A stretch of 47,770 nt of DNA from a virus, in IMG/VR virus record IMGVR_UViG_3300002461_000080, positions 1-47,770 of that record; one strand, written 5' to 3'. Positions 1 through 26,028 of this stretch are shown one piece after another; the first letter of the stretch is position 1; each line of letters opens with the position of its first letter. The translations under genes and the position numbers were made by a program. The notes under the pieces are model-generated. The model was not told the origin of the DNA. It saw only the letters and a list, made by a program, of their open reading frames with translations, and ran no database searches.

Positions 1-94
1 CCGCCACTGCGGCAGCCGAGCGCGTCCTGCCACTTCTGAGGCCGGACCGCCGTGAGCGGCAGCCTGAACGCGGCCAGCACGCCCTGAATGTTCC
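1..94. repeat. Terminal direct repeat copy 1, identical to 47677..47770. Likely a closure overlap of a circular or circularly permuted genome.
   Basis: Bases 1-94 match the last 94 bases of the window base for base. Joining the ends restores one in-frame ORF. Confidence 0.95.
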
Positions 95-344
95 CGAGCC
101 CGCATCCGAACGTGAACGCGCTCACGACGCCCATCTGCGGAGTCGCATGCACGAACTCGGTGTAGACCTTGCTCCGCTCCGGCAGCGTCGCCACGAACGC
201 CGCCAGCTCGTCGACCGTCGCCGGCATCCGACGCGCTGCCAGCACCTTGCCGCGCCGGCTCAGGACCGCGATGCCCCCACCCTTGCCCGGATCGATGCCG
301 ACGATGCAGCTCACCCGGAGATTCTTGACAGAAACCTTCGCCAT
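1..344 (-). CDS. ruvC: RuvC-like Holliday junction resolvase, 5-prime part. The gene wraps the contig junction and continues at 47676 down to 47535.
   Basis: ATG at 344 lies 1 nt after the dnaB stop. The translation is MAKVSVKNLRVSCIVGIDPGKGGGIAVL..YTEFVHA, with the GIDPG catalytic Asp motif. The phase matches ORF 47535..47756 across the 94-bp overlap, giving 486 nt / 161 aa in total. Confidence 0.85.
   Translation of the reverse strand, partial: MAKVSVKNLRVSCIVGIDPGKGGGIAVLSRRGKVLAARRMPATVDELAAFVATLPERSKVYTEFVHATPQMGVVSAFTFGCGLGNIQGVLAAFRLPLTAVRPQKWQDALGCRSG
321..336 (+). promoter_or_regulatory. Inverted copy of the phage 12-mer TTGACAGAAACC, which reads on the plus strand at 325..336.
   Basis: Exact 12-mer match to the three minus-strand copies. 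It overlaps ruvC codons 3-7 (KVSVK). No convincing -10 follows it on the plus strand. Confidence 0.4.
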
Positions 345-2785: not shown

Positions 2786-3376
2786 TCAGCGCCAGCGACA
2801 CAGCGGCGTCGCCGGCCCGATCTTCGGATCGTTGAACCGTAGCGCGTTGAGGTTCAGCGTCACCGTGCCCGCGCCGGTCCACCGCCAGGACCACATCGCG
2901 CCGCCGTGCCACCAGATCGAATCGACGTCCGTCGCCCACTTCACGCTGCCCCAGGTGAGCGGCGCTCCGATGCCGGCGTCGAAGTTTCGATGAACCTGCG
3001 CGACGCACGTCGCGATGTCGAGCACGAGCGCCGAGCGCGTCGTCGTCTCGTAGGTGAGTAGCATCCAGCGCCCGCCGACGACTCGCAGGTCGCCCGGCAG
3101 GAAATGGAACCCGTGAACGCCCAGGTCGAACGGCGGCAGCGGCGGCAGCTCCGGCGGCGGCGCCGGCTTGCCTGGAGGTCCCGGAGGTCCCGGAGGCCCC
3201 TGCGGTCCCGGAGGTCCGGGGTTGCCCTTCGGTCCCGGAGGTCCCGGCGGACCGGGCGGACACTCGACCTTGCACTCGGTCGGCGGCGGCTGCCATGTCC
3301 GCGTGAGCTGCTCAGCCTGCACGCTCGTTGCTGCGAGCGCCAGAACCACGATCGTTGATAGTGCATACTGCTTCAT
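2786..3376 (-). CDS. Secreted collagen-like protein: signal peptide, 10 G-X-Y triplets and a globular C-terminal domain.
   Basis: The ATG at 3376 has SD GAGGAGG. The N-terminus is [23 protein letters not shown]. The collagen run is [30 protein letters not shown] (3164..3253), followed by a roughly 110-aa Trp-rich C-terminal domain. Confidence 0.75.
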
Positions 3377-3535
3377 GGAACGAGCCTCCTCGGCTCGACG
3401 TTGCCCGGCGACGCCCACCGCCGCCGGGTTCTTCACACTGGAGGGAACCATGCCGGTCATCTTCTTCATCGACGCTGCTGCGATCACGATCAACTGGTTT
3501 CTCGCGTGGGGCGGCGTCTGCTACTACTACCCGGA

Positions 3536-5992: not shown

Positions 5993-6193
5993 TCAGCCCC
6001 TCCTCACCGTGGCCGTCGCCGGCCCTCTCACCGCCTTACGTGACTTGTTCCGCGCCGCCTTGCGTGCGAGCTGGTAGAGCTGCCCGTCGTCGAGCACGAC
6101 GTCGACGTGTGCGTCGCGCTCGAGCACGATGGACTCCCCGCCGCGCCGACGGCCCACACTCTCGCCGGCGCGGAACGTGACGACGACTCTCAC
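5993..6193 (-). CDS. Hypothetical early protein.
   Basis: 66 aa from a GTG at 6193 that overlaps the upstream stop (GTGA). It has a basic C-terminus. Confidence 0.45.
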   Translation of the reverse strand: MRVVVTFRAGESVGRRRGGESIVLERDAHVDVVLDDGQLYQLARKAARNKSRKAVRGPATATVRRG

Positions 6194-7191
6194 CGGAGCA
6201 CCGTCGTGTTCTTCGTGGCCTTGACGCCCGGCCACATCTCGACGCGCTTGCCGAGCGAACGCGCGGCCCGGTTCAGCGCCGCCGCGTCGACGATGAACAC
6301 GTCGCGCGGGATGCCGTAGCCGCCCTCGAATGCCGCGTCGCGGAACTTCTCGAGGTCGACGACCGCCGCGCTCCACTGCTCCCGGTCGCCCGTGTTGAGC
6401 GCCGGCTTCGCCGCTGCCTCGATCTTGCCCTCGTCGACGTAGACGGGCATCTCCTTCATCACATCGATCTGCGTCCGCATCGTGTGAGCGGTCCGACGCG
6501 CCTCGATCGCCTTGAGGATCTTCTCGCTCGCCAGGAGCCGCGACGCCTGCCCGTTCGGGTCCTTGAACCCGGCTTCACGCGCCGCGCGCTCGCCGGCGCC
6601 GTGCCGCATGTAGCCCTCGACGAACGCCGTCTCGCGGTCGCTGAGGTCCGGGCTCGACTCCTCCGCCCGCAGCGCCGCCGCCTCGAACTCCGCCAGCTTG
6701 CGAGCGCGGTCCGCTTCCGCCTCCGCCTCCTGCTTGCGGCGCTCCTCCTGCTCGGCCAGGGCGGCGCGGCGCTTCTCGTTGTCGACGTAGGTCGTATGCA
6801 GCCGGGTCCCGTGCTTCTCCGCGTCCTCGAGCGGGTCGGTCGCTCGAGCGCGGCCGGCCGTCGTCATCCGGTGGAGCTTCGACAGCGCCGACGTGATGAC
6901 CTCCCAATGCGCCATCGCCGCCTTGCGCGCGTCGCGTGCGTCGATGACCTCCTGCCGGATCGCCGCGTCCTGTTCCTTCGTCGTCGGCACGGCCAGCGCC
7001 ATGATGCGATCGCGGCGCTCGACGGCCGCGCGTTCGATCTGCTGCGACGTGCGGAAGAACGTCGTCAGGTTCCGCAGCCAGTCGACGATGCCGATGCTCT
7101 CGGTCGCGACGAGCGCGACCTCCTGCGGCTCCGGCTCGAGAACCTCCGGAACCGCTGCCTTCGTCGTGCCCTTCTTCGTTGCCTTTGCCAT
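6190..7191 (-). CDS. Early protein with a coiled-coil region and a terminase-small-subunit-like HTH segment.
   Basis: 333 aa from the ATG at 7191 with SD GGGAGGG. The segment SDRETAFVEGYMRHGAGERAAREAGFKDPNGQASRLLASEKILKAIE resembles the N-terminal HTH of Terminase_2-type TerS. Confidence 0.7.
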   Translation of the reverse strand: MAKATKKGTTKAAVPEVLEPEPQEVALVATESIGIVDWLRNLTTFFRTSQQIERAAVERRDRIMALAVPTTKEQDAAIRQEVIDARDARKAAMAHWEVITSALSKLHRMTTAGRARATDPLEDAEKHGTRLHTTYVDNEKRRAALAEQEERRKQEAEAEADRARKLAEFEAAALRAEESSPDLSDRETAFVEGYMRHGAGERAAREAGFKDPNGQASRLLASEKILKAIEARRTAHTMRTQIDVMKEMPVYVDEGKIEAAAKPALNTGDREQWSAAVVDLEKFRDAAFEGGYGIPRDVFIVDAAALNRAARSLGKRVEMWPGVKATKNTTVLR

Positions 7192-7201
7192 GTGACCCTC
7201 C

Positions 7202-7417
7202 CTACTGAACGCCGAGCGCACGCTCGGCACGATCGACGCTGTCGCCAGCGCCGTAGTCCTGCTCGATCTTCTCCATGAGCTGCTCGGCTTCACGCTGCTG
7301 GCGGATGAACTGCTGCCCGATACGCCCCGGCGTGAGCTTCGCGTCAGCCGCGTAGGTTTCGGCCGCGACGCGCAGCGCGTTGATGATCGTCCACTGCTCG
7401 TGATCGGTGAGCTTCAT
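7202..7417 (-). CDS. Hypothetical protein, first gene of the early operon.
   Basis: 71 aa. SD GGGAGGG precedes the ATG at 7417, and the gene is directly downstream of the motif and palindrome. Confidence 0.65.
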   Translation of the reverse strand: MKLTDHEQWTIINALRVAAETYAADAKLTPGRIGQQFIRQQREAEQLMEKIEQDYGAGDSVDRAERALGVQ

Positions 7418-7430
7418 TGTCCGGACCCTC

Positions 7431-7461
7431 CCACGTCGGCGGAATACCGCCGCCGACGTGG
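7431..7461. promoter_or_regulatory. Perfect 12-bp inverted repeat with a 7-nt spacer. Candidate operator, 5-prime stem-loop or processing site.
   Basis: CCACGTCGGCGG (7431..7442) is the exact reverse complement of CCGCCGACGTGG (7450..7461). It lies between the promoter-like motif and the SD of gene 7202..7417. Confidence 0.6.
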
Positions 7462-7465
7462 ACCG

Positions 7466-7499
7466 AGGATCTCACGAGTCCGAGGTTTCTGTCAACAAC
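7466..7499 (-). promoter_or_regulatory. Candidate sigma70-type promoter P1: the GTTGTTGACAGAAACC motif plus a weak -10.
   Basis: On the minus strand the sequence reads GTTGTTGACAGAAACC (7484..7499). The -35 TTGACA is at 7490..7495, followed by an 18-nt spacer and then GATCCT preceded by TGA. This is the intergenic gap before the early operon. Confidence 0.5.
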
Positions 7500-9906: not shown

Positions 9907-10146
9907 CTATGCCGACGCGGCCCGCTTCGCCTCGAGATACTTCAACGTGTCCGTCTCACCCCGAGCCATGAACTCGATGGTGTCCGCGTCGCTGACCTGC
10001 TCCGGTTCCCAACCTGCGAGCTTTGCCAGTCGCCGCCGTGCCGCCTCGAATCGCTTCGAGCCCGTGATCGTGAGCGCCTGAGCGCGCACCGGCTCGCCGT
10101 CCTTCGGGGCGAAGATCGTCGGCCTGCCGCCGGGTGTCTTTGCCAT
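9907..10146 (-). CDS. Hypothetical protein, first gene of the recombination operon and apparently leaderless.
   Basis: 79 aa. The ATG at 10146 lies about 7 nt after the candidate -10 of P2, and no SD is visible. Confidence 0.6.
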   Translation of the reverse strand: MAKTPGGRPTIFAPKDGEPVRAQALTITGSKRFEAARRRLAKLAGWEPEQVSDADTIEFMARGETDTLKYLEAKRAASA

Positions 10147-10152
10147 GCGGAA

Positions 10153-10186
10153 AGACTAGCCCCGGCGGCTGGTTTCTGTCAACAAC
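10153..10186 (-). promoter_or_regulatory. Candidate sigma70-type promoter P2: GTTGTTGACAGAAACC plus TAGTCT.
   Basis: The minus strand reads GGTTGTTGACAGAAACCAGCCGCCGGGGCTAGTCTTTCCGCATG. The -35 TTGACA is at 10177..10182, followed by an 18-nt spacer and TAGTCT at 10153..10158. It occupies the only gap between the lysis and recombination modules. Confidence 0.55.
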
Positions 10187-10187
10187 C

Positions 10188-10529
10188 TCACCGCTTGAGG
10201 TATCGCTGGTAGATCCACTCCGTCAGGCCGAACTGCGCCGCGACGCCGAGGATGAAATACGACAGGTTCAGCGGCGTCATCCCGTCGATGACGAGTCGCC
10301 CGGTGCCCAGGTCGTAGCTGTAGCCGATGCCGAGGCTCGTGAGCAGCGTCGCCGTGACCGTCAGGGTCCGGAGGATGACCGCGTGATTCTTGTCGACGAA
10401 CGGCACGCGGCCCTTGAGCGCGTTGATGAGGATCGGCAGCGCGGCGGCGACTCCGCCGATCGTGCCGATGTAGAGGATGGCCCGCGTGATGCCGTCCGCA
10501 AGGATCGGCGCGAGTAGCTTCTCGAGCAT
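10188..10529 (-). CDS. Holin-like membrane protein with three predicted TM helices.
   Basis: 113 aa. It has three hydrophobic stretches and a basic C-terminus (QRYLKR), and it is the last gene of the lysis cassette. Confidence 0.5.
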   Translation of the reverse strand: MLEKLLAPILADGITRAILYIGTIGGVAAALPILINALKGRVPFVDKNHAVILRTLTVTATLLTSLGIGYSYDLGTGRLVIDGMTPLNLSYFILGVAAQFGLTEWIYQRYLKR

Positions 10530-13303: not shown

Positions 13304-14113
13304 TTAGAGGCCGACGTAGTAGCCGACGTTGATACGGTTCAGCACGGCAGCCCCCGCCGCCGGCATCGTGAATGTGGTGTTGGTGTTGGCGACGAGTGAC
13401 TTGAGCGGGTTCGCGAGCTGCATGTCGACGTCGATCTGCGTGCCGCCGGCAGCCATCGCATTGCCCACCGACCACACCGGACTCCCCGGCAGGTTCGCGG
13501 ACGTGTGGAGCAGGGTCGCCGTGCCCGCGAGCGCGGCCGTCGCGTTCCGCATCATGTTCAGATACGTGATGTAGTGGAACAGGCCGACGCCAGCGGCCGG
13601 CAGCGTCGCCGTTGCGCCCGTGTTGGCTGCGGCCGTCACCGTCACCCATAGGACGGTCGGCAGCGGCTTACTGTAGGCGATGATCCGCGCGCCGCTCGCC
13701 CTGAGCGCGACCGTGATGTTCCCCGACGTGAAGGCTGAGACGCGCACACGCACGCGCTTGTAACCGCTGCATCCGACGAAATAGCTGGCGGAGTGCGTCG
13801 TCGTGATCGTGACGCTGTTGACGAACTGCTCGCTCGCCGCTGTTGCTGCAACGAGACTGCCGACCGCCAGCGCCGGCAGCGGGAAGTAGTTGGTTCCGTC
13901 GACCGTTCCCTCGAACACGTAGGTCAGCGATCCGGCGCCAGTGCGAACGTCGATCGCGACTGTCGAGCAGCCGTCCACGTCCGCCAGGACCTCGGCGTTC
14001 GCCGCCGCGAGGAGGTTGGTGAACGTCCGGCTGTCCGTGTTGACTTCGCCGTTGACGCGATCGGGGAACAGGCCCCGGATCTCATTCCCTCGAGCATCGT
14101 AGAGTGTCGGCAT
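13304..14113 (-). CDS. Hypothetical tail or fibre-associated protein.
   Basis: 269 aa. The start overlaps the collagen-fibre stop (TGATG), and the composition is Thr/Ala/Val-rich and beta-type. Confidence 0.6.
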   Translation of the reverse strand: MPTLYDARGNEIRGLFPDRVNGEVNTDSRTFTNLLAAANAEVLADVDGCSTVAIDVRTGAGSLTYVFEGTVDGTNYFPLPALAVGSLVAATAASEQFVNSVTITTTHSASYFVGCSGYKRVRVRVSAFTSGNITVALRASGARIIAYSKPLPTVLWVTVTAAANTGATATLPAAGVGLFHYITYLNMMRNATAALAGTATLLHTSANLPGSPVWSVGNAMAAGGTQIDVDMQLANPLKSLVANTNTTFTMPAAGAAVLNRINVGYYVGL

Positions 14114-15096
14114 CAGAGCACCATGTAATCGAGCACGAGGTTCCCCCCGAGCGGCTGCTCGCCCTCGAGGAGCAACGTGAAGTTACCAGAACCCGGCACG
14201 GCCCGCATGCACAGGTCATCTTCCATCGGCGCGTCGACGTCCGTCTCTGCGACGCCCGCCAGCCACGGCAGCACCTTCGAGGCTCCCGTGACGCTGCCCG
14301 CCGTGACCACGACCGAATGCGACCGCTTCGCCGGCCAGCCGAGCGCCACGACGACGCGCGTCGCGGAGCCGCCACCGCCGCCCGCCGGTCCCTGCGGCCC
14401 GGTCGCGCCCGGCGGTCCCGGTGGCCCCGGCACGCCGACGCCGTCGCGGCCCGGCGGACCCTGGAGGCCCTGAGCGCCTGCCGGTCCCTGCGGGCCGGTG
14501 GCGCCCGGCGCCCCCTGCGCTCCCGGAGGTCCGGCTGGTCCGGCCATACCGGCGGCGCCTGGAGGCCCAGGAGCGCCCTGCGGCCCGGCTGGACCCTGCG
14601 GCCCGGTCGAGCCCGTGGCGCCAGGAGTGCCCGCGACGCCTGGAGGCCCCTGCGGACCCACCGGGCCGGCCGCTCCGACGGGTCCGGGCGCCCCAGGGTT
14701 CCCCGGTGGCCCCTGCGGGCCGGTCGCTCCTGCGGGTCCCTGTGAGCCCTGGACGCCCGGCGGACCCTGCGGCCCGGTGGCGCCCGGAGGCCCCATCATG
14801 CCCGGCGTGCCCGCCGGTCCCTGTGCGCCCGTCGCGCCGGCGGGTCCCTGAGCGCCGAACGCGCCCGGCGGTCCGCCCGGTCCCGGAGGCCCGGCGGGTC
14901 CCGGCGGTCCCGGAGGTCCGGGCGCTCCGCTGCCGCCGCCGCTCGAGCTGCTGCCGCCGAGGCCGATCGCCGGCGTGCCGTCCTGCCGTGCGAGCCCGAC
15001 GTTGATGCGATTCGAGACGCGCGTAACCTTCCCGCGCGCCGACGGGTCGACCGTCGTGCGATTGAGTCCGCGCTGCGCCTTCGAGAACTTCGGCAT
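14113..15096 (-). CDS. Collagen-like tail fibre protein.
   Basis: 327 aa. It has about 55 uninterrupted G-X-Y triplets, one interruption (GVGV), then about 6 more. Non-collagen N- and C-terminal domains flank the repeat. The gene occupies the gp17 position after the internal proteins. Confidence 0.75.
14377..14928 (-). repeat. Coding 9-bp-periodic G-X-Y (collagen) repeat tract.
   Basis: GGN-CCN-rich triplet periodicity is visible in the DNA and translates to [13 protein letters not shown]... Confidence 0.85.
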
Positions 15097-18000
15097 CTAC
15101 TTCGGCGCTCCGGAGATGAGTGCCATCGGGTTCGACGTCTTGCCCTCGACGAGCGCCGCGAACCCTTCGATCGTCCGCTTCACCTGTCCCGCAGGATAGT
15201 GGAACACGGCGCCGGCCGTGTCATTGAGTGACCGCCAGAACGCCGCGTCAGGCTCACCCTGTTCGACCTGCTGCACGAGCCGCGACGCGCTCGAGAACGC
15301 CCGCGCGCCGGCCGGTCCCTCGTAGCCGTAGCCGTTGCCGACGACGCCGGCGATCTCGCGCGTGATGACCATCGTGCCCAGGATGTAGGCAGCCTGCTCC
15401 CGCGCCAGCCGCACCGCGAGGTCCTCGTCGTCCTCGTCGCTGCCCGGCTTGATCGCCTCTCGCAGCGCCAGCCCCATCAGCGCCGGCACGGTGTAGAGCA
15501 GGAGGTAGTCGACCATCAGCCGGCCGATGTCCCCCGGCTTGCGGAAGTTGGTGCGCCGCGTCGACTCGGCCGCGAGGTTGTAGGTGACGTTGAAGAACGA
15601 ATAGAAATTCGTCCACAGCCGCAGGAGCGGCCCGCCGCGCTGGATGCCGGCGAGGTCCTTGACCTGCCCGCCGCCCTGCGAGTCGAGCACCGCCTGATCG
15701 GCCTGCGCGATCGCCGCCGCCTCGTCGACGCCACTCTCGAGCGCCTTCTCATACTGGCCGAGCCACGTCGGCAGGTCCGCGATGAGCTGCGCCTGCTGGA
15801 TGAGGAAGAAATAGCTATCCGCGACACCCTGCCGCGTCGCCTTGCCGCCGCTCACGCCCTTGAGCACGTCGTCGATCCAGCCGGAGAACGTGCCCGTGTT
15901 GACGCCGACGGCGTTGCGGATCTCGTTGATCTCGCGCTGCTGCGTCCGGCCGCGCTCGCGCATGAACGTCGACCGCTCCCGGACCCATGCCGCCGTGTTC
16001 TCCATCGTTGCCGCGTCGCGGAGCCAGCGCGCCATGCCGCGCGCTACCCACTTCGGCCCGATGCGGACCATCGACTGCGTGAGGCCGATCGGCTGGAGCA
16101 GCGCCGTCGTGATGTTCCAACCGAGCCCGGCGATCGTCGCGCCCTGCCGGAGATGGTTGATTGCGCGCTCGAACGCGCCGGTCGCCGGCACGTCCCCGAT
16201 CGCGATGTCGCGGACGCCGTTCTTGAGCTGCTTGTAGACGACGTCGCCGTGCGTCTCGTAGATCGCCGCCTGCACCGCCGGATGCCCCAGGACGCGGCCC
16301 ACGTCGATGAGCGTCTCGTGGTGGCTCAGGTCGTGGATGACCTGCCGAACGTGCTCGAACATCACACCGAAGTCCCGGCGGACCGGCAGCTTCACGCCGT
16401 CGACGCGCGCCTTCGTGTGCCCGCGCTTCGTCGTGCTCTGCGCGTAGGCAGCCGCTCGAGCCAGCCCCGCCTCCTCGACGTCGACGAACGCGCCGGCCTT
16501 CGCGCTCCGCCGCTCGTCATACTTGAGCGGGAAGTAGCCGCCAGCGAACTCCCCGAACGGCGTGCGGATCGTTGCCGCTTCGACCTTCTCCGGCGCGATG
16601 CCGTAGACGCGCTCCTGCTTCGCGGCGATGTCCGACCAATACCCGTTGATCATGTCGAGCACGCCCTGAACGAACTGCCAGTCGCTTTCCGACAGCGTCG
16701 CCAGGATGCCGGCGACCTGCTCGTCGGTCCACCGCTCGGAGCGCCGGATGCGGTCCCGGTTGCCCTCGTTGCCCCAATTCAGGGCGATGCCGATGCGCTC
16801 CATCTTCGATAGTGACCGGCCCACCGACGGCGCCAGCTCCTTCGTGTAAAGCGCCCGCTTGTCTCGAGCCGTCGGGAACGCCGCGTCGACGAGCGCCTGG
16901 AACTTCGCCGCCGCCTGCGCGTTCATCTCCGCCTCTCGAGCGCCGGCTTCGTTCAGCGGCCGGACGACCGCCTCCCACATGGCGCCGCCGTCCTCGAACC
17001 CGTCCATCTCGCGCACGAGGCTGGCGATCTTCCGGTGGCTGGCGATGAAATCCTGCACGCCGCGCATGCGCTCCGTCGACGGCCGGCGATCCATCTCACC
17101 GGCGCTCGCCGGCTTGCCCTTGAAGTTGGCGCGGATCGCCGTGGCGATCTCGTCGGCCGTGGCATCCAGCTCCCGCTGCGCCGCCGCCTTGAGTAGCCGG
17201 TTCTTGAGCCGCGCCAGATGCACCAGCGCCTTGAGGCCGTCCGTCACGCCGACGAGCTGCTCCACCGTGAGGTTCTGGTAGTTGGTTCGCAGCGCCTCGT
17301 TGAGCAGCTCCTCCGGCATGTCCGTCGGGAGCCCCTGCGACTCGAGCCCTTCGATGAACTTCACCAGCGACGCGCGGCGGTCGAGCGCCTGCTGGCTTAC
17401 CCGCGCGAACTCGAACCGATCGAGGATGCCGTCGATCTGGTCGAGATAGTTGTGCCCGGCGAGGCCGATGCTCGAGCGCGTCGTCGGCCGCGCCAGTCCC
17501 CGCGCGAACTTCACCCGCGCCTCGACGTCCTCGAGCACGCGCTGAGCTTCGCGGTAGAGCGCGAGGTTGAGCAGCTCCTTCCGCTTCGACTCGATCGCGC
17601 CGTCGTAGTCGGTGCGCGCGGCGCGCTCGAGCGCCTGCTGCGCGGCCCGGCGGCTGGCGTGCCAGAACACATCCGGCTTGACCTGCCGGATCTTCATGCT
17701 GGCGATCCGCGCCTTTGCCGCCGCGACGACGTCCTCGTGTCGCGGCAGCGCCGCGTTGATGACGCGCGCCCCGCCTCGAGCCTTGCGCCGCAGCTCCGAC
17801 AGCTCGGCCTGGAGCTGGTCGATCTCGAGCTGCTTGGCGCCCTCCGCGATCGCGACTCGCAGCTTCGTCTCCGCCTCGAGGAACCGGCGCTCGTAGTCCC
17901 GCTCCCGGCGCTCGGCTGCGAGCTGCCGGCCCGCCGCCTGCTCGAACGGCCGCACCGTGGCCCTCAGCTTCGCCAGGGCTCGCAGCTCGGCCCGGACGAT

Positions 18001-21000
18001 GACGTCCCGGTCCTCATTCGAGATAGCGGCCTGAGCGGCATTCTGGAGCGTCCCATCGAGCAACAGGCTCCCGTGCTCGGCCAGCATCCGCTGTTCGGTC
18101 CGCGCCCGGATGACCTCCCGCGCCGGCGCCGCCTCCGTAACCGCCTGGAGCAGCGCGTCGCCAGAGTCGTAGCCGAACATGCTGGCGACGAACTCCGGGT
18201 CGAGCCCGCCGTCGGCCGCGTAGATGTAGGGCCGTGGCAGCCGCTTGAGGTAGTCGAGCCCGTAGCGCGCGACGAGGATCGCCCGCGACAGCCGCAGCGG
18301 CTCCGTCTCGAGGCCCTCAACCATCGGGCTCCCGTCGGGCAGCGTCCCCCGCTGCATCGCCGCCAGCGCCCGGTAGACCGGCTCCGCGTAGACCTCCGCC
18401 GCGACCTCCGCCTCGATCTCGTTCCGCCGCGCCTTCCACTGCTTCGTCTGCTCGCGCTGAACCTCCGCCATCAGCCGGCGATCGAGCTGCTCGCGGGCCG
18501 TCCGGTTCGCCGCCTGGATGGTCCCCTCGTAGAGCGCGAACTCCTCCGGCGTCATGCCCGCCGACTCCGCCGTCGTGAACATCGGCGGCGCGTTGCGGAG
18601 GTCGTTGGCCTGTGCGATCGCCACGTCGCCGGCGACCATGCGGTCGACCACCGCCCGCACTTCCGGCGTGAACTGCACGCCGAGCCGGCTGAGCGAACGG
18701 TAGACGCCGAGAATCCACGCGCGGAACCTCGAGAACGCGCTCTGCAACCGGAGCGACGGCGCCTTGCCTTCGCCCAGGTATGCCTCGAACGCCGCCGCAA
18801 ACTTCTCGTGCTGGTCGACGCCGATGCCGGCGCGGCTGTCAACCTCGAACCACTCGAGCAGCGTCGCGTAGTCCGCGATGAGCGCCTGCTGCTGCGCGGT
18901 CCGAGTCGCCGGGTCGCTCGCCTTTACCTTGTCGACGAGGTCGCCCATCAGCTCGAGGAACAGGTGCCCCGACTCGTGGAGGAACGTCGTCAGGTCCGCA
19001 CGCTCGAACAGGCTGATGCTGACCTGCCGGCCAGGACCGAACCGGATCGCCCCGCGACGGCCGCGCTCCTCGGTCTGGTAGAGGATGCGCGGGTCGTTCG
19101 GGTCGAACGTGCCCACGTTGCCGACGGCGCTCTTGACCTGCTCCGGCTTGAACACGATGTAGTGAACCGTGTCCGCGTCCATGCCGGCCATCGGCGTGCC
19201 CATCTTCTTCTGGCTGCCGAACTTCGTGTCGACCGTCGTGTCGACGATGCCGTCGTAGCCGAGCCGCTCGATCGTCCGGCGGATGATCTCGCCGCGAATC
19301 AGGTTCCCCTGGTCGTCGGTCGCGTAGCCGAGCTGCTCGCTCGTGAGCAGGATCTCGATCGCCCCTCGGAGCGGGATGCCGTCGTAGTCGCGCGCCCGTT
19401 CCATGATGCGGTCGACGACGTCGCCCAGGTCGGAGAACTCGACGTCGTTCGCGAGGTCGACCTCCGCCTGGAGCGCCTCGAGGAACTCGAGCACGCCGCC
19501 GCCCTCGGTCGGGTCGTAGCCCTCGCGGTCGCTCAGCTCTTGGACGATCTGCTCGTCGTCCATGCCCTCCGCCCGCAGCTCCTCGACGTCGGCCGGCTCG
19601 AACGACGTGATCGGCTCGTCGTAGACGCGCGTGTAGTCGAGCAGTGACTCGTTGCGCCCGCCGAGCCGCGCCGGCCGCTCCATCTTGAGGTAGACGGGCA
19701 TCGTCATCCCGCCATGCTTCACGCCGAGCCGGTCGAGCGCCAGCAACCGCACCGCCGCGAACCGATCGTCTGGCGCCAGCGTCCGGTCCTGCCGCGTGAG
19801 GTCCTGCTTCGCCCGCGCGATCTCCTCCGGCCGCTCCGCGACGATCGCGTCGAGCTGCTCGATGATGTCCTCGTCGTCCATCTCGAGCGCGCTCTCGATG
19901 CGCTCCACTTCGCGCGACAGCTTGCTTGCGAGGTCCGGCCCCGCCTCGGTGGCGTAGTTGGCGCCGACGTCGCGCGGGTTGTTCGAGAAGTAGATGCCGG
20001 CGCCCAGGTCCGACTCGACGTTCGCCCGCGTGGGATCGAACGTGTCGAAGTCGCCCGTCGTGCCGTGGTAGACCACCAGCGGCTCGCCGTCCTCGTCGAC
20101 GATCTGGCTTTCCCCGAACCACTTCCGGAGGTTCTGCTCGCGCGCCGTCGAGCCGTGCGCTTCGTTCGACTGCTCGGTGACGGCCTGCACGAAATCGCGG
20201 CGCTCCTTGCCCGTGACCGGCTTGCCGTTCTTGTGCGTGAGCTGAACGATCGAGTCGTCGAACACGACCATGTTGCGGAGCTTCTTCCGCTTGCCCTGGT
20301 CGCGGCTGTTGGCGTCCTCGTATTTCAGCCCCGGCACGCCGGCAGCCAGGAGCTTGAGGCTCGCCAGCCGCGCCGCATCCTCCGCCGCGCGCTCCTCGAG
20401 CACTGCGAGCTGCACGAACTCGTCGTAGTCGGCGCCGAACTGCGCCCGCACCCGCTCCTCGCTCGAGCCGGATGCGATGCCGCCGCCCGTCGGCTGCGCC
20501 GGATGCTTCGCCCGCAGCTCCTCCGCGCGCTCGCGGAGCGGCTTGCGGATGCGCTCCTCCTCGTCGGCCTGGATGATGCGATAGGCCATCTCGCCGTTCG
20601 CCGGCTGCGACATGCTGCCGCGCTCGAGCGTGTAAGCCTTGAACGCGCTCTTGAGCTGACGCGGCCCGTTGTCCTTCGGCCCCAGGTAGCCGCGCCGCTT
20701 GAGGCCCTCCCGCACGAGGTCCTGCACCGGCTTCGGCTGCTTGTCGATCGGCGCGTCCCAATCGAGCATCTTCGCGACCTGCGCGTCGTCGATCTCGATC
20801 TGGTAGACCCCGCCCTTCACCGGGTCCCATCGCACGGACGCGGCGCCCGGCTTCGCCAGCTCGTCGCGGAGCCGCTTCGTCGCCTCGATGCCCTCGGTCC
20901 ACTCCTCGATCGCGAGGTCCTTCGCGTGTTGATCGAGCCACTCGAGCACGTAAGCCTGGAACCCGTCCTCGCCGCGCCCGAGCAGCTCGAGCGGATTCGC

Positions 21001-24000
21001 CAGGAGGTTCTCCGCCAGCGACGCGCGGACGTTCTCGATGTCGCTCTCCGATGCCCGGCGCGAGTAGTCGAACCCGTTCTTGTCATTCAGTCGCATGCTG
21101 CCGAGACGCATCTCGACCATCTGCGGCTCACCGCTCAGGGTGTCGAAGTAGTGCCCGGCGATCGCCGGGTCCTCCGCGAAGTAGAGGCCCCAACCGTAGG
21201 CAGCCGCGCCCTCGCCCGTGCCGATGTGCTCGACCGAGAAGCGATCGAAGTCGTGCGGGCTCCCGTGATAGAGCGGCTGGTCGAACTCGCGCACGCCGGC
21301 GCGGAACGCCCGGAGCTGCTCGCGCGACGGCCCGACACTGCGCGGCTGGCTCGGCCCGTCCGCGTAGACGGTCGGCTCGCGATACATGCCCTCGCGCGTC
21401 GTGAAGTCCTTCGCCCGGCCCCGGTTGTCGACGAACCCGAACCGCCGATAGAAGGTCCGCAGCCGCGACGCGCTCGAGGTCCGCTCCGTGTTCGGCGTAT
21501 ACGGCCAGCCCTTTTCCGCCGGCGACAGCTCGAGCCGGATGCCGCTGCGATCCGCCCACCGCGTCAGCTCGCGCATGACCTTCGAGCCGAGCCCCTGCCG
21601 AGCGGCGCCGCGACGGATGAGGATCGTCTCGAGCTTCACGACGTTCTCGCGGAGCGGGTCCACCCGCAGCTCGAATGACACCAGCTCGTCGCCGGCGGCG
21701 CGCTTCACCGTGTCCGCGAATGCGTCGGCCGTCTGCTGCGGGTCGGCCGTCTCCTCCGCCGGCAGACTTTCGCGGTCGATGACCACCAGCGCCGGGAACC
21801 GCTTCGCGCCGAGCAGCTTGAGCGCGTCGAACCGATGCGCGCCCTCGAGGATGTAAGGCCCCTGCTTGTCGACGACCACGATGAGCGGGTTCAGGACGTT
21901 GTTCTCGCGGATCGCCTCCGCCAGAGCCCGCGTGCGCTGCTCCTCACTCGTCGAGTAGAACGACGGCGCGTTCTCGCTGAACAGCGACATCGGCACGTCG
22001 CGGATGCCGGCCAGGACCTCGTAGTCCTCGAGCGACGCGGCGATCGACGACGTGTTCGGGACCTCCGCCTGGACGACGCGGCCGTCGACGACGTCATCCG
22101 CGACCGGATACTCTGCATCGAACGCCGTCGGCGCCGGCGTCACGTCCGGCTGGTTGTAGATGACCGCGTCGTCGCGATCGAACGCGCCGCTGTTGTTGTT
22201 CGCGTGCTTGACCTGCGTCGGTCGGAACGCGATGTATTGAACCTCGCCGTCCTCCGCGTCGCGGAACACAGCGCCGTCGTAGCCCATCGCCTCGTAGCGC
22301 GCGATGTCCTTCGGTCCCCACCCGATCCAGTCGTCGAAGTTGTCGATCTCGACCGGGTTCTCGATGCGCGCGTAGAGCGGCAGCACGATCACGCCGTCGT
22401 AGGGGTCCGGCACGTCCTGTGCCTTCGTCGCCTTCGGCGCCCGCTCCGCCCCGAACTCGAGCGCGACGTCGCTCAGGTTGGTGAGGTAGATCGGCAGCGT
22501 CGGGTCGAACGCATCGAACTCCACCGCCGTCCCGTGGAACAGCGTCATCGGGTTCCCGGCGCCGTCGACGACGACACTGTTGCCGAACCACCGGCGGAAC
22601 GCCGGCGAGTCGATCGGGTTCCACGGCTGGAACAGCGTCGTCTGGAAACCCTTGCGCTGCTCGACCTCGCTCGTGAGCCGGAACTCGTCCTCGACGTCCG
22701 ACATCTTCGGCGTCGGCCGCTCCTCCTCGCGCACGTCGCCCACGTCGCCAGGGAGTCGCGGCTGCGCCTCGCCGGTGTCGAGAAGGTCCGCCTTCGTCGT
22801 GAGCTGCTCGGCCGCGCCGGGCTCCTCGAGCTGGTCGAACAACGACTGCGCGAAGTCCGCCACGTTGAACGACGTGTCGACCGGGCCGTCGGGCTCGAGG
22901 ATGTCCCGCTCCATGTCGTCGACGTCGAGCAGGTCGACAGCCTGCCGGTCGACGTCGTTCCACCAGTCGCGCGAGAAGTCGATGCCGAGCCCCTTGAGGT
23001 CGCTCGCATCGGGAACCGCGCCGAGCCCTTCCGGGATGCCGTTCAGCCGGACGTCGTCGAGAAACGCGACGAGGTCCTCGATGTCCTGCAACCACGGCCA
23101 GCGGCCTTCCGCCTGGAGGTCTTGCAGCATGACGTCGAGCCCGAGCCCGCCGCGCTGCTCCTGCCGGATCTCCCACTTACCATCGATCTTCTTCCGGACG
23201 TTGACGAGCTTGCGCGGCTTGACGACGAGCACGCCCGGCACGCCGCCGACCTTCCCGAAGATCGTGCCCTCGCGGAGCCGCGCCATCTCGCCGGCCTGCC
23301 CGCGTTCGCTCTCGTAGATGCCGCCCTTCGCGGCGATCGCCTTGAGCAGTTGGACCGGGCTCTCCTCGTTCTGGATGCCCTTGATGTCGTCGAAGATGTC
23401 GAGCCGGTAGTCGAACTCGGCGCGGAACTTCCGCTCGTCGAGCGCCGGGTCTAGTGAACGCGCCGCGTCGAGCGCGTCCGCGTAGAGGCCGAGCCGCTCC
23501 GCGTTCGCATACGGTTCCAGCGGCCCGGCGGCGAGAACGTCTCCGTCTGCTCCGCCTCCTTCGCCGCGCGGCGGAGCGCCAGCTTCGCCGGCATCCCTGC
23601 CAGCACGCGCCGCCTGAGCTTCTCGAGATCCACCGGCATCGGTCCCCCCATCCTCCCGCGCGGGAAGGTTTCTGTCAACAACACGCCCGCCGTTGTCGGT
23701 CAGGACGCGGAACCCGTCCGGGCCGGCAATGCCGAACGTCTGACCCTTGCGCGGCTGGTAGTCGACCGCGTCGGCGCCGATGACCGGCGTGAACCGCCCG
23801 GCCCGGTCGAAGTAGCCGAACGCCTCGCCGCGCGCCTTCATGCCCTCGAGCCGGGACATCGCCTCGAAGGACGCGCCCGACTCGCCGCTGGCGTTGACCT
23901 CGAGCCCCGGTCCCTGGTCCCCTTCGCCCAGGACCGGCTCGATCGTCGCGCCGGCGGATGCCGCCTCGAGCGCCGCCATGCCGGGAACCTCGTCCCCGAA

Positions 24001-26028
24001 CGCCGGCGCCGCTTCACCCTCAGCCGGTGCGAGCGGGAGCGCCCGAGACTCCGCCGTTGAGGTCGCCCCGCTCCCAGCTCCTACGGGGCCGGCAGCCGCC
24101 TCCGCCGGCGTCCCGCTCGCAGCCCGAGCCTTCGGACGCTCGAGCGCCGGACGGTCGATCGACAGCCCCAGGTCGGCCAGCATCGAGCGCGGGTCCACGC
24201 CGGCGCGCTCGGCCAGGGAACCGAACGTCGACTCGTAGAGGTCCGCGTAGCTCTCCGCCGTGCTGCGCTCGACGCCTGCGCCCTCGAGCTGCGTCAGGAT
24301 GTCGCCCCGGACCTGCTGCGCCGGCGTGAGCGCCGCGTCGACCGTGGCCTGCTCCTGCGCCGCCGCCTCCGCCTCGAGCTGCGCCTTGAACTCGCGCGCT
24401 TCTCGAGCGTTCATCTCGCCCGGCGCCAGCCGCAGCTCCTCAGCGAAGAACCGATTGTGTTCGGTCGCCGCCAGCGTCACGGCGTAGCGCGCCGTCGGAA
24501 TCGCGAGGTCCTCGCCGGTCGCAAGCGCCCGCTCGAGCGCCTCACTCGAGCCGATGACGTCCCGCGCGATCTCGGCCGGGTCGACGCCCTGCGACTGCCA
24601 ATACTGGACCCACGCCTCCGCCGGCGCGTAGATGGTCCCGATCGGGCCGTCCTTCGTCGCGCGCTCGAGGAACGCCTGCGCCGCCTCCGGCGCTCGCTTG
24701 ATGGTTGCGGACGCGGACGCTTGCCCGCCGAGCGCCTTGAAGAACTGCGCCGTCGCCTCGCCCTGCTGGATCTGCCGCTGCGCTCGAGCGGCGCCCATCG
24801 CCGGGCCGGCGCCCGACAGGAGCCCGAACCCCTCGATCGCGCCGATGCCCTCGTTGACGAGGTCCTCCGCGATGTCGCCGCCGGTGCGCGTCGGAATCGA
24901 CTGGTCGGATGCGGCCTTCGCCAGCTCGCCGGCCATGATGGTGATGCCGCGCTGCGCGACCTCGGTCGCCGTCTCGACGGTGAGCGTCGTCCCGTAGGAG
25001 CGGACCGCCTCCGCCAGCGCCGCGCGCACGGTCGGCTGCCGGAGCGCCCGCTTCACTGCCGCTCGAGCGCCGACCGACGTCAGCTTGTCGAGCCCCGGAA
25101 TCGTCTTGGCGATCGCCTCGAACCCGACCGCCTCGAACCCTGCCGCCATCGCGCCGGCCGACAGCGCCGCCACCCGCGCGATCGCCGGGTCGAGCGTCTG
25201 CCCCGTCTCGTCCTTGAACGCCAGGAACTCGTCGAGCGCCAGCCCCGACTCGATTACAAAACCGAACTTCGCCGCCCCGTAGAGCGCGCCGGCCCTCGCG
25301 CCATACGGCGCTGCCGCCAAAGCGCCCGGAATCGCCCCCACGCCGCCCGCCACAGCGCCCACGCCGGCGCCCACGGCTCCCGTAGTGGCGGCGCCGGCGA
25401 CGCCGTAGGCGCCCGCGTAGAGGCTCGCGCCGAACAGGTTCGGGAGCTGCTGCGCGCCGCCGGTGACGGCCTTCTTGAACCAGCTCGAGCCGGTCCCCAG
25501 GGCTCCGCCGTCGACCATGTGGAACCGATACGCCTCGAGCTGGTCCTGCTCGGCCCTGGTCAGCTCCCGGAACAGGCTCTCGTGGCGGAGCTGCGCGAAC
25601 CGGACCTGATTGATGCCCTGCGAGAACGCCCGGCCCGGCGCCGACACCAGCCACTCGAGCGCGCCGAGCTGCTCCATGTCGTCGGCCGCGACCTGCGCGT
25701 TCATTGGGTCGCTTGCCCACTCGGCCAGGGCCGGCGTCTCCGCGAACATCGCCTCGTATGGCGTGCGGCCGTTGTCCGCCTCGAGCTTCACCCGATCGAA
25801 GTTGGCTTCGACGAGACGGGCCGGCAGCCCCGTCTCCTTCGACAGCTTCATCGCTTCGGCCGCGCGCTCCGGCGCCACCTTGTCGCGCTCGAGCATCGCC
25901 GCCCGGAGCCGCTGCTCGCGGCCGTCGTGGAGCCGCGAGACGGCTGCCTCGAACGGGTCCTGCTGCGGCCCCTGCGCCTGCTCGTCGTCGAGCGCGCCGA
26001 GCGCGTCGTCGTAGATGTTGCCGGCCAT
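15097..26028 (-). CDS. Giant polyvalent internal virion / ejection protein in the gp16 position, 3643 aa.
   Basis: A single uninterrupted ORF of 10,932 nt. Motifs seen are FRRWFGNSVVVDGAGNPMTLFHGT, LRKWFGESQIVDEDGEPLVVYHGT and LYHGSPHDFDRF..GWGLYFA (ART-like); PYILEGAHRFDALKLLG (ParB/Srx-like); RQGLGSKVMREL..FYRRFGF (GNAT-like); and FLHESGHLFLE (HExxH). Confidence 0.85.
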   Translation of the reverse strand: MAGNIYDDALGALDDEQAQGPQQDPFEAAVSRLHDGREQRLRAAMLERDKVAPERAAEAMKLSKETGLPARLVEANFDRVKLEADNGRTPYEAMFAETPALAEWASDPMNAQVAADDMEQLGALEWLVSAPGRAFSQGINQVRFAQLRHESLFRELTRAEQDQLEAYRFHMVDGGALGTGSSWFKKAVTGGAQQLPNLFGASLYAGAYGVAGAATTGAVGAGVGAVAGGVGAIPGALAAAPYGARAGALYGAAKFGFVIESGLALDEFLAFKDETGQTLDPAIARVAALSAGAMAAGFEAVGFEAIAKTIPGLDKLTSVGARAAVKRALRQPTVRAALAEAVRSYGTTLTVETATEVAQRGITIMAGELAKAASDQSIPTRTGGDIAEDLVNEGIGAIEGFGLLSGAGPAMGAARAQRQIQQGEATAQFFKALGGQASASATIKRAPEAAQAFLERATKDGPIGTIYAPAEAWVQYWQSQGVDPAEIARDVIGSSEALERALATGEDLAIPTARYAVTLAATEHNRFFAEELRLAPGEMNAREAREFKAQLEAEAAAQEQATVDAALTPAQQVRGDILTQLEGAGVERSTAESYADLYESTFGSLAERAGVDPRSMLADLGLSIDRPALERPKARAASGTPAEAAAGPVGAGSGATSTAESRALPLAPAEGEAAPAFGDEVPGMAALEAASAGATIEPVLGEGDQGPGLEVNASGESGASFEAMSRLEGMKARGEAFGYFDRAGRFTPVIGADAVDYQPRKGQTFGIAGPDGFRVLTDNGGRVVDRNLPAREDGGTDAGGSREAQAARAGRDAGEAGAPPRGEGGGADGDVLAAGPLEPYANAERLGLYADALDAARSLDPALDERKFRAEFDYRLDIFDDIKGIQNEESPVQLLKAIAAKGGIYESERGQAGEMARLREGTIFGKVGGVPGVLVVKPRKLVNVRKKIDGKWEIRQEQRGGLGLDVMLQDLQAEGRWPWLQDIEDLVAFLDDVRLNGIPEGLGAVPDASDLKGLGIDFSRDWWNDVDRQAVDLLDVDDMERDILEPDGPVDTSFNVADFAQSLFDQLEEPGAAEQLTTKADLLDTGEAQPRLPGDVGDVREEERPTPKMSDVEDEFRLTSEVEQRKGFQTTLFQPWNPIDSPAFRRWFGNSVVVDGAGNPMTLFHGTAVEFDAFDPTLPIYLTNLSDVALEFGAERAPKATKAQDVPDPYDGVIVLPLYARIENPVEIDNFDDWIGWGPKDIARYEAMGYDGAVFRDAEDGEVQYIAFRPTQVKHANNNSGAFDRDDAVIYNQPDVTPAPTAFDAEYPVADDVVDGRVVQAEVPNTSSIAASLEDYEVLAGIRDVPMSLFSENAPSFYSTSEEQRTRALAEAIRENNVLNPLIVVVDKQGPYILEGAHRFDALKLLGAKRFPALVVIDRESLPAEETADPQQTADAFADTVKRAAGDELVSFELRVDPLRENVVKLETILIRRGAARQGLGSKVMRELTRWADRSGIRLELSPAEKGWPYTPNTERTSSASRLRTFYRRFGFVDNRGRAKDFTTREGMYREPTVYADGPSQPRSVGPSREQLRAFRAGVREFDQPLYHGSPHDFDRFSVEHIGTGEGAAAYGWGLYFAEDPAIAGHYFDTLSGEPQMVEMRLGSMRLNDKNGFDYSRRASESDIENVRASLAENLLANPLELLGRGEDGFQAYVLEWLDQHAKDLAIEEWTEGIEATKRLRDELAKPGAASVRWDPVKGGVYQIEIDDAQVAKMLDWDAPIDKQPKPVQDLVREGLKRRGYLGPKDNGPRQLKSAFKAYTLERGSMSQPANGEMAYRIIQADEEERIRKPLRERAEELRAKHPAQPTGGGIASGSSEERVRAQFGADYDEFVQLAVLEERAAEDAARLASLKLLAAGVPGLKYEDANSRDQGKRKKLRNMVVFDDSIVQLTHKNGKPVTGKERRDFVQAVTEQSNEAHGSTAREQNLRKWFGESQIVDEDGEPLVVYHGTTGDFDTFDPTRANVESDLGAGIYFSNNPRDVGANYATEAGPDLASKLSREVERIESALEMDDEDIIEQLDAIVAERPEEIARAKQDLTRQDRTLAPDDRFAAVRLLALDRLGVKHGGMTMPVYLKMERPARLGGRNESLLDYTRVYDEPITSFEPADVEELRAEGMDDEQIVQELSDREGYDPTEGGGVLEFLEALQAEVDLANDVEFSDLGDVVDRIMERARDYDGIPLRGAIEILLTSEQLGYATDDQGNLIRGEIIRRTIERLGYDGIVDTTVDTKFGSQKKMGTPMAGMDADTVHYIVFKPEQVKSAVGNVGTFDPNDPRILYQTEERGRRGAIRFGPGRQVSISLFERADLTTFLHESGHLFLELMGDLVDKVKASDPATRTAQQQALIADYATLLEWFEVDSRAGIGVDQHEKFAAAFEAYLGEGKAPSLRLQSAFSRFRAWILGVYRSLSRLGVQFTPEVRAVVDRMVAGDVAIAQANDLRNAPPMFTTAESAGMTPEEFALYEGTIQAANRTAREQLDRRLMAEVQREQTKQWKARRNEIEAEVAAEVYAEPVYRALAAMQRGTLPDGSPMVEGLETEPLRLSRAILVARYGLDYLKRLPRPYIYAADGGLDPEFVASMFGYDSGDALLQAVTEAAPAREVIRARTEQRMLAEHGSLLLDGTLQNAAQAAISNEDRDVIVRAELRALAKLRATVRPFEQAAGRQLAAERRERDYERRFLEAETKLRVAIAEGAKQLEIDQLQAELSELRRKARGGARVINAALPRHEDVVAAAKARIASMKIRQVKPDVFWHASRRAAQQALERAARTDYDGAIESKRKELLNLALYREAQRVLEDVEARVKFARGLARPTTRSSIGLAGHNYLDQIDGILDRFEFARVSQQALDRRASLVKFIEGLESQGLPTDMPEELLNEALRTNYQNLTVEQLVGVTDGLKALVHLARLKNRLLKAAAQRELDATADEIATAIRANFKGKPASAGEMDRRPSTERMRGVQDFIASHRKIASLVREMDGFEDGGAMWEAVVRPLNEAGAREAEMNAQAAAKFQALVDAAFPTARDKRALYTKELAPSVGRSLSKMERIGIALNWGNEGNRDRIRRSERWTDEQVAGILATLSESDWQFVQGVLDMINGYWSDIAAKQERVYGIAPEKVEAATIRTPFGEFAGGYFPLKYDERRSAKAGAFVDVEEAGLARAAAYAQSTTKRGHTKARVDGVKLPVRRDFGVMFEHVRQVIHDLSHHETLIDVGRVLGHPAVQAAIYETHGDVVYKQLKNGVRDIAIGDVPATGAFERAINHLRQGATIAGLGWNITTALLQPIGLTQSMVRIGPKWVARGMARWLRDAATMENTAAWVRERSTFMRERGRTQQREINEIRNAVGVNTGTFSGWIDDVLKGVSGGKATRQGVADSYFFLIQQAQLIADLPTWLGQYEKALESGVDEAAAIAQADQAVLDSQGGGQVKDLAGIQRGGPLLRLWTNFYSFFNVTYNLAAESTRRTNFRKPGDIGRLMVDYLLLYTVPALMGLALREAIKPGSDEDDEDLAVRLAREQAAYILGTMVITREIAGVVGNGYGYEGPAGARAFSSASRLVQQVEQGEPDAAFWRSLNDTAGAVFHYPAGQVKRTIEGFAALVEGKTSNPMALISGAPK
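23649..23682 (-). promoter_or_regulatory. Intragenic copy of the GTTGTTGACAGAAACC motif, followed by the perfect palindrome TCCCGCGCGGGA.
   Basis: The 12-mer is at 23667..23678 in minus orientation and encodes VVDRNL of the giant protein. The 12-bp palindrome is at 23654..23665. Confidence 0.4.

Follow-up and report, generated by a model that had tools for sequence, protein, structure and literature searches.

What is the role of a 12-bp sequence that recurs exactly at four dispersed sites of a single phage genome? The question arose from IMG/VR virus record IMGVR_UViG_3300002461_000080, analysed here over its whole length of 47,770 nucleotides (the window), and in particular from positions 10,153 to 10,186, where one copy of this sequence, TTGACAGAAACC, precedes a small gene. 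An earlier note on the locus had read the repeat as a phage-specific promoter class in which the stretch GAAACC extends the -35 box. According to our analysis, the four 12-mers are probably, if by no means certainly, the core of a 17-bp quasi-palindrome that marks four early promoters of the sigma-70 type (P1 to P4), each overlapped by a dyad operator.

The repeat unit and its symmetry

The 12-mer TTGACAGAAACC occurred at 325-336 on the plus strand and at 7484-7495, 10171-10182 and 23667-23678 on the minus strand, and in none of 100 dinucleotide-preserving shuffles. GTTG was found directly 5' of all three minus-strand copies, and GAGGTTG was common to two of them. Exact matching and shuffling thus confirmed what had been reported on the number of copies and on their GTTG prefix. 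The true repeat unit was 17 bp long (GGTTGTTGACAGAAACC); it was exact in two copies, with one mismatch in copy 4 and two in the plus-strand copy. No further good 17-bp copy was present in the window, the next best (41320, plus strand) having four mismatches. The four copies are:

320-336, plus strand: copy 1, GATTCTTGACAGAAACC, an inverted dyad that covers the spacer and -10 box of putative promoter P1
7484-7500, minus strand: copy 2, GGTTGTTGACAGAAACC, holding the -35 box of putative promoter P2
10171-10187, minus strand: copy 3, GGTTGTTGACAGAAACC, a quasi-palindrome holding the -35 box of putative promoter P3
23667-23683, minus strand: copy 4, TGTTGTTGACAGAAACC, holding the -35 box of putative promoter P4, within an open reading frame (ORF) of 3643 aa

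An exact TTGACA was present in all four window copies, in addition to the separate -35 box of P1. A 17-bp quasi-palindrome has the A of TTGACA at its centre, GAAACC and the GGTTG prefix being its arms. What had been taken for a one-sided extension of the -35 box is therefore one half of a dyad, the right arm, with GGTTG as the left; the accompanying suggestion, that recognition involves more than the core -35 contact, was borne out.

Relatives of the window were reached through homologues of the 79-aa protein encoded downstream of copy 3 and of a gp15-like protein, the latter search yielding about 130 relatives. The dyad of the window's own clade, GGTTGTTG-A-CAGAAACC, displayed 6 of 8 symmetric pairs, and the dyads of relatives 7 to 8 of 8 (for example AGTTGTTGACAACAACT and ACTTCTTGACAAGAAGT). 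The consensus over about 16 related genomes was TT-S-TTG-N-CAA-S-AA, and the following palindromes, perfect or nearly so, were recorded:

L063, L066 and L059: AGTTGTTG-A-CAACAACT
L039 and L060: ATTGTTG-A-CAACAAT
L065: ACTTCTTG-A-CAAGAAGT
L057 and L061: AGTTGTTG-C-CAACAAGT

Probable promoters at copies 2, 3 and 4

Copy 3 occupied a 41-nt gap between the stop codon of an ORF for a 113-aa membrane protein (10188-10529) and the 79-aa ORF. The former is preceded by a 537-aa ORF and a DUF5675 ORF, and the latter lies ahead of genes for an Mgm101-type recombinase and an exonuclease; the name of lysis module, given earlier to genes beside copy 3, is plausible. The features at this promoter are:

10182-10177, minus strand: putative P3 -35 box TTGACA, the centre of copy 3
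10158-10153, minus strand: putative P3 -10 box TAGTCT, 18 nt past the -35 box and 6 nt (ttccgc) before the ATG
9907-10146, minus strand: 79-aa ORF with ATG at 10146-10144, the first gene after P3

The arrangement TTGACA-N18-TAGTCT-ATG described earlier for 10153-10186 was recovered, with a gap of 6 nt to the ATG, and no purine-rich Shine-Dalgarno sequence was found before ATG 10146. This ATG is the correct start, since an N-terminus reading MAK... is common to close homologues. The same layout occurred at the homologous position in eight genomes (the window, L042, L046, L038, L069, L047, L039 and L060):

L042: TTGACAgaaacc-N12-TAGTCT-N6-ATG
L046: ...TAGGCT-N6-ATG
L038: TTGACAgaagcc...TAGCCT-N6-ATG
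L069: TTGACAgaaacg...TAGCCT-N6-ATG
L047: TTGACAcaaacc-N11-TAACCT-N7-ATG
L039 and L060: TTGACAataacg and TTGACAactacg, respectively, ...TAAGCT-N8/9-ATG, the palindromic variant

The earlier note had made its case depend on the motif being found at homologous positions of related phages, where it was indeed present. The P3 homologues held the -35 box, a spacing of 17-18 nt, a TAnnnT -10 box and a distance of 6-9 nt to the ATG, while the spacer and the flanks diverged. Such conservation of the geometry agrees with the proposal that copy 3 drives a leaderless gene, and the P3 transcript very probably starts at, or a few bases from, the ATG of the 79-aa gene.

Copies 2 and 4 displayed a comparable arrangement of boxes:

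7495-7490, minus strand: putative P2 -35 box TTGACA, the centre of copy 2
7466-7471, minus strand: putative P2 -10 box GATCCT, after an 18-nt spacer
7431-7461, minus strand: hairpin in the P2 5' untranslated region, between P2 and the GGGAGGG of a 71-aa ORF
23678-23673, minus strand: putative P4 -35 box TTGACA, the centre of copy 4, internal to the 3643-aa ORF (15097-26028)
23650-23655, minus strand: putative P4 -10 box GAGGAT, after a 17-nt spacer and 10 nt before ATG 23639
23451-23639, minus strand: 62-aa ORF in the +1 frame of the giant ORF, beginning just past P4

P2 homologues were present in L042, L046 and L047, with GAGACT, GATCCT or GACGAT as -10 box and a spacing of 17-18 nt. Unlike P3 and P1, P2 was not leaderless: its leader of about 48 nt carried the Shine-Dalgarno sequence GGGAGGG before an ATG at 7417. 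The TGA within the P2 TTGACA (7494-7492) is the stop codon of an upstream 66-aa cysteine-rich membrane ORF. The leader hairpin had a perfect 12-bp stem (ccacgtcggcgg / ccgccgacgtgg); two of its 12 predicted pairs showed compensatory changes among the window, L042, L046 and L047. No Rfam match was obtained for it, and GC-rich structured leaders were also found at the P2 homologue of distant relatives.

P4 was kept inside the giant ORF of seven relatives (L052, L053, L054, L055, L058, L059 and L065), with GAGGAT, GAGACT, CAGGAT, CAGACT or CAGAAT as -10 box, each at 17 nt; L050 and L051 were uninformative for copy 4 because of their distance or numerous frameshifts. Over some 150 nt, between about 23700 and about 23550, third-position GC content (GC3) dropped to about 0.5 in the giant frame, and that of the +1 frame rose to more than 0.9. 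The first 30 or so residues of the 62-aa ORF (..L..V..GMPAKLALRRA..) were conserved in eight genomes, distant ones included, and the giant-frame translation across this ORF was of low complexity and variable but always open. The 62-aa ORF thus has the appearance of a small overprinted gene, served by a promoter of its own, in a linker of the giant gene, although the switch of frame may also be a recoding event.

For each of the four promoters, P1 included, the sigma-70 geometry was kept in five to nine related genomes. Their -10 hexamers all displayed A at position 2 and T at position 6, namely TAGTCT and GATCCT after 18 nt and GAGGAT and AAGAAT after 17 nt. Since this geometry was maintained at homologous sites while the surroundings drifted, copies 2 to 4 are very probably promoters of the housekeeping type. 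The designation of a phage-specific promoter class was therefore overstated, as the -35 and -10 boxes are ordinary housekeeping ones and the search of the scanned ORFs brought up neither a sigma factor nor an RNA polymerase of the phage.

Copy 1 and the probable promoter P1

Copy 1 was organized differently: here the dyad lay in reverse orientation on a promoter that had a -35 box of its own.

349-344, minus strand: putative P1 -35 box TTGACA, in which TGA (348-346) is the stop codon of the DnaB gene
326-321, minus strand: putative P1 -10 box AAGAAT, after a 17-nt spacer and followed by 6 nt (ctccgg) to a GTG at 314-312
1-314, minus strand: 5' part of a gene for a RuvC-like resolvase with a GIDPG motif, continuing over the circular junction to 47535

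P1 was recovered independently by a consensus promoter scan of the window. Its layout was conserved in L042, L046 and L047, and the same architecture was observed in L058, L061, L057, L060 and L039 and, with a weaker dyad (8 of 10 positions), in L059. The start of the RuvC-like protein was assigned to GTG 314 (VSCIVGIDPG) rather than to ATG 344 of the longest ORF because relatives start 4-5 residues before GIDPG. The RuvC-like gene, whose GTG likewise lacks a Shine-Dalgarno sequence, is probably the second leaderless gene, transcribed via P1.

On the other strand, the copy-1 site of L047 (reverse-strand reading TTGCCAcaaacc) had lost both the antisense -35 box, now TTGCCA, and the -10 box. It retained the arm and displayed the same G-to-C change as the other L047 copies. 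An antisense promoter at copy 1 is thus not conserved, since L047 has lost its boxes, and copy 1 is probably an operator-only site rather than a fourth promoter of the same kind. Of the earlier view that the copies are promoters, the part concerning the three minus-strand copies stood, these being of sigma-70 type, but it probably does not hold for the plus-strand copy, whose boxes are lost in L047.

At both P1 and P2 the promoter was fused to the end of the upstream gene, with zero intergenic space. Two tandem dyads about 18 bp apart were observed at the RuvC-type promoter of L039 (17506-17545) and L060 (12581-12620), one over the -35 box and the other over the -10 box. In L039 the first of them was situated within a terminator-like stem followed by TTTTT.

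Distribution of the dyad among related genomes

The dyad was searched for as TTNTTG-N-CAANAA with at least 9 of 10 matches, giving a site set that covers 20 loci from about 16 genomes. Almost every genome displayed 3-5 sites per locus of about 20 kb, against 0-0.15 in shuffles; no site was detected in the structural-gene regions covered, nor in L067. A clear relationship was observed between the centre of the dyad and the sequence downstream. Of 44 dyads centred on TTGACA or TTGCCA, 42 were followed by nAnnnT at 17-18 nt, against a background of 5.2%, and the -10 box positions lying outside the selection criteria read TAgnCT.

Fifteen dyads had no downstream -10 box. Both arms were kept in 13 of them although the centre was unlike a -35 box (CTGTCA, GTGGCA, TTGGCA, TTCGCA, TTAGCA, TTATCA or CTGGCA). 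Nine of the 15, window copy 1 among them, sat on the -10 box of a promoter with its own -35 box (TTGACA, TTGACG or TTGACT) 17-18 nt upstream, in such a way that the right arm (AAGAAT or AACAAT) doubled as the -10 box. Another three (L057, L061 and L062) were located directly past a -10 box (TAGAAT, TAGACT or GATATT), over the transcription start and the ATG of the 79-aa gene; the remaining three fitted neither group. Overall, dyads were placed on a -35 box (44 sites), on a -10 box (9) or on a transcription start and ATG (3), with A, C, G or T as centre base. Since its occurrence is independent of which promoter element underlies it, the dyad behaves as an operator would.

These observations suggest the following mechanism. 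Host RNA polymerase with its housekeeping sigma factor would use P1 to P4, and a dimeric sequence-specific protein would bind the dyad, on the -35 box at P2 to P4 and on the -10 box at P1, and thereby switch the four promoters together, most probably repressing them by occlusion. The arms around TTGACA should be dispensable for RNA polymerase and are most likely the binding site of the regulator. The promoter part of this mechanism draws on the comparative evidence; its protein part, to which dyad symmetry and independence of position point, is the most likely reading of the arms.

Several points weigh against an operator. In the window's clade the symmetry of the dyad is incomplete, and the GA (or CA) that breaks it is conserved in turn. 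Across genomes, positions +/-4 did not co-vary symmetrically in a strict manner; strict compensatory co-variation of the arms was considered and rejected, these positions being simply G or C on each side. As the scan selected sites by their arms, the information content of the arms is partly circular, and many sites are homologous among related genomes and hence not independent observations. An antisense promoter at 325 (TTGACA-N18-AATCGT) may operate in the window itself. Finally, no DNA-binding regulator was identified among the scanned ORFs, and the 79-aa protein had no significant sequence or fold match.

Alternative explanations

Could the repeat be a promoter class and nothing else? RNA polymerase itself would then read the flanks, through an unusual contact of the host sigma factor or alpha subunit or after modification by the phage; there would be no separate operator protein, and the plus-strand copy would be an antisense promoter. 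The near-invariant TTGACA with -10 boxes at 17-18 nt agrees with this, as does the AATCGT or AATTGT located 18 nt from the plus-strand copy in the window, L042 and L046. Furthermore, TTG...AA arms are common to very divergent phages, as if a conserved host component read them. Such a class is nevertheless unlikely, because the arms are kept around centres unfit as -35 box (TTCGCA, TTAGCA, GTGGCA, CTGTCA) that lack a -10 box downstream and coincide with the -10 box or the transcription start of a different promoter. The loss of the antisense boxes in L047, with retention of the arm, tells against it too, as does the failure to detect a sigma factor or RNA polymerase of the phage among the scanned ORFs. 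Moreover, we know of no role for two-fold symmetry in the recognition of the -35 box by sigma-70 region 4. A more specific proposal, an ECF-sigma promoter (GAAAC-N16-CGT), was rejected because it fits copy 1 only. Recognition by a polymerase or sigma factor that the phage itself encodes disagrees with a consensus that is the canonical TTGACA / TAnnnT and with the lack of any such protein among the scanned ORFs.

An activator or sigma-remodelling factor bound to the dyad seems quite improbable. In that case a phage early protein at about -32 would recruit or re-target RNA polymerase, which could explain why several -10 boxes are poor (GATCCT, GAGGAT, CAGACT) and would allow co-activation of all four promoters through their common site. 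But a dimer centred on the -35 box, on the -10 box (P1 and its homologues) or on the transcription start would occlude RNA polymerase, class II activators being centred near -41.5, and the -35 box already matches the consensus perfectly, as is typical where a strong promoter is in need of repression rather than activation. We give very little credit to a nucleic-acid structure or a site of DNA transactions, that is, a hairpin, terminator, processing site, origin iteron, or packaging or recombination site. The perfect palindromes of relatives do fold as RNA (-10.9 kcal/mol, z = -3.6), one L039 copy overlaps a terminator-like stem with a T run, and the early-region protein encoded at 6190-7293 has a small-terminase-like DNA-binding domain. 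Yet folding is weak for the window motif (-4.1 kcal/mol, z = -0.9; copy 1, -2.8 kcal/mol), although no variant is conserved more strictly, and a hairpin role is disfavoured because its RNA folds no better than shuffles. The copies are also single and dispersed at gene starts instead of clustered like iterons, every one of them is tied to -35/-10 geometry, and the window copies are neither followed by a T run nor located at terminator-like sites.

Search for a possible regulator

If the dyad is an operator, a protein should bind it. No Cro/CI, helix-turn-helix or ribbon-helix-helix family was detected among the scanned window proteins, nor did the scanned ORFs include an integrase, a sigma factor, an RNA polymerase or any repressor that could be recognised. 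By position only, as the first product of P3, the 79-aa protein qualifies as a candidate autoregulator, and the dyad was always present at the promoter of its gene. Its large and unannotated family of standalone proteins of 70-90 aa comprised 381 representatives at 50% identity, with F12, F33, R37, L40, S52, D55, E58, R62 and G63 as near-invariant residues. The AlphaFold2 model (pLDDT 88.9) consisted of three helices following an extended N-terminus. Profile searches against Pfam, PHROG, NCBIfam and PDB returned nothing significant for this protein, and a Foldseek fold search gave non-significant matches only, to ribbon-helix-helix-like TCP and NikA domains (E = 2-9). Membership of the ribbon-helix-helix group was rejected, since hhalign comparisons with CopG and Arc were negative and the fold searches non-significant. 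A host protein is an equally possible regulator of the dyad.

The early region also encodes a protein with a small-terminase-like (Terminase_2 / phrog_51) DNA-binding domain (6190-7293, minus strand), the second of its kind besides the small terminase of the packaging module (44019-44777). In relatives it is the main product of the P2 operon, and it is a possible candidate for a DNA-binding regulator or a replication initiator.

A bolder proposal, which we regard as doubtful, takes the dyad for the operator of phage regulators that are very small and form a new family: the 79-aa protein translated from the leaderless P3 message, or else the conserved peptide of about 30 aa encoded in the +1 frame just past P4. 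Such a regulator would control its own synthesis and shut off, in a co-ordinated way, all early promoters in a widespread uncultivated family of soil podoviruses, one of which promoters would be embedded in the gene of the 3643-aa injected polyvalent protein and drive the overprinted gene.

Genome context

Bases 1-94 of the window were identical to bases 47677-47770 (94 nt, self-comparison of the window). With these identical ends, the window is accordingly an assembly of 47,676 bp that is circular or circularly permuted. Its GC content was about 69%, and codon-position GC placed nearly all genes on the minus strand. The source is a 47.7-kb phage of the podovirus type from an uncultivated, high-GC soil family known from metagenomic contigs of about 45-48 kb. 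Along the direction of transcription its genes are ordered as follows:

First block: small and large terminase, portal, Bbp19-like protein, scaffold and capsid
Second block: tail proteins and internal proteins like T7 gp14 and gp15
Third block: 15097-26028, minus strand, 3643-aa polyvalent protein with LPD22 and ART-PolyVal domains (PMC5512222)
Fourth block: collagen-like fibres, DUF5675 protein, 537-aa protein and 113-aa membrane protein
Fifth block: copy 3, 79-aa ORF, Mgm101-type recombinase and exonuclease
Sixth block: copy 2, small-terminase-like DNA-binding protein, SF2 helicase and DnaB
Seventh block: copy 1, RuvC-like gene and MT-A70 methylase

The capsid protein was 58% identical to those of epsilon15/phiV10-like podoviruses and Caulobacter Jessavirus podoviruses (PMC11053796), and was the only protein with such kinship. 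Half of the window gave no megablast match to cultured phages, and neither did the 79-aa and Mgm101-like proteins in tblastn. A scan of IMG/VR with an exact 16-mer yielded 35 single unrelated matches and no related genome, and a literature search with motif strings returned primers only. For the host, a scan of GTDB genomes recovered only a 9.6-kb contig of a metagenome-assembled genome labelled Conexibacter. Searches for transfer RNA genes and Rfam families had no match in the window, and no sign of a prophage state was seen, nor an integrase among the scanned ORFs.

Collagen-like Gly-X-Y repeats occurred in two minus-strand ORFs, one in the tail-fibre region (14113-15096) and one in the early region (2786-3493), which together give rise to the large direct-repeat family D1. 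At 41320-41337 on the plus strand, just past the stop codon of the large terminase gene, a hairpin with a 7-bp stem (GCCGTTG-ACAG-CAACGGC) contained TTGACAGCAACG, the sole relative of the 12-mer with two mismatches and a weak match to the dyad (7 of 10). This element may be a terminator, a degenerate operator or a chance occurrence.

Comparison with known systems

Operators that overlap phage promoters are textbook biology. In lambdoid phages, the OR and OL sites bound by CI and Cro (lambda, P22) are partly symmetric 17-bp sequences over the -35 and -10 boxes of strong early promoters and are recognized by a dimeric regulator; lambda cI transcribed from PRM is leaderless. The present sites resemble them in that 17-bp, partly symmetric sequences recur on early promoters of one phage. 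They differ by occurring singly, without tandem triplets, at four dispersed promoters all on one strand, with no divergent PR/PRM switch, and by an operator centre that is the consensus -35 hexamer itself. Unlike in lambdoid phages, no CI/Cro-like or other helix-turn-helix protein and no integrase were detected here. The c repressor of phiC31, a temperate Streptomyces phage with an identified repressor, recognizes 17-bp inverted repeats across the early region of a phage with a high-GC host, next to near-identical early promoters that are not sigma-70-like, the repeats lying beside the -35 box. Inverted repeats of 17 bp at early promoters are common to both systems, but those described here are inside a sigma-70-like -35 box. 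P22 Arc and Mnt and plasmid CopG are autoregulators of 50-80 aa encoded directly downstream of the promoter that they repress, through pseudo-symmetric sites over the -35 and -10 boxes. The 79-aa gene has a similar position; membership of this group was unsupported by profile or fold comparison.

Mycobacteriophage L5 has a 13-mer site that, on the other strand, also contains TTGACA. In this and other cluster A phages a short site is repeated in a phage of a high-GC host and coincides with an early promoter, and one protein silences many units (PMC9283540). In L5 a monomer binds the stoperators, which are 13-mers devoid of symmetry. There are more than 20 of them, most being found between genes where there is no promoter, and they function in a single orientation relative to transcription (PMC9283540). 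Both phages have in common a short phage-specific site repeated round the genome and present on early promoters. Unlike stoperators, the sites in the window are dyad-symmetric, only four in number, each on a promoter element, and one of them is inverted.

The element would thus appear to be the familiar design of a phage early promoter with an overlapping operator, found here in an uncharacterised phage family. Besides this design, the analysis revealed an unusual promoter and an overlapping ORF within the gene of a giant virion protein. Four promoters with a shared 17-bp site provide a compact regulatory map for a common family of soil phages of about 46 kb that has neither a cultured member nor annotated regulators. 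The element could help to locate promoters and early regions among metagenomic contigs of related phages and could serve as bait for its regulator, and it may supply strong, perhaps repressible, leaderless promoters as parts for high-GC bacteria.

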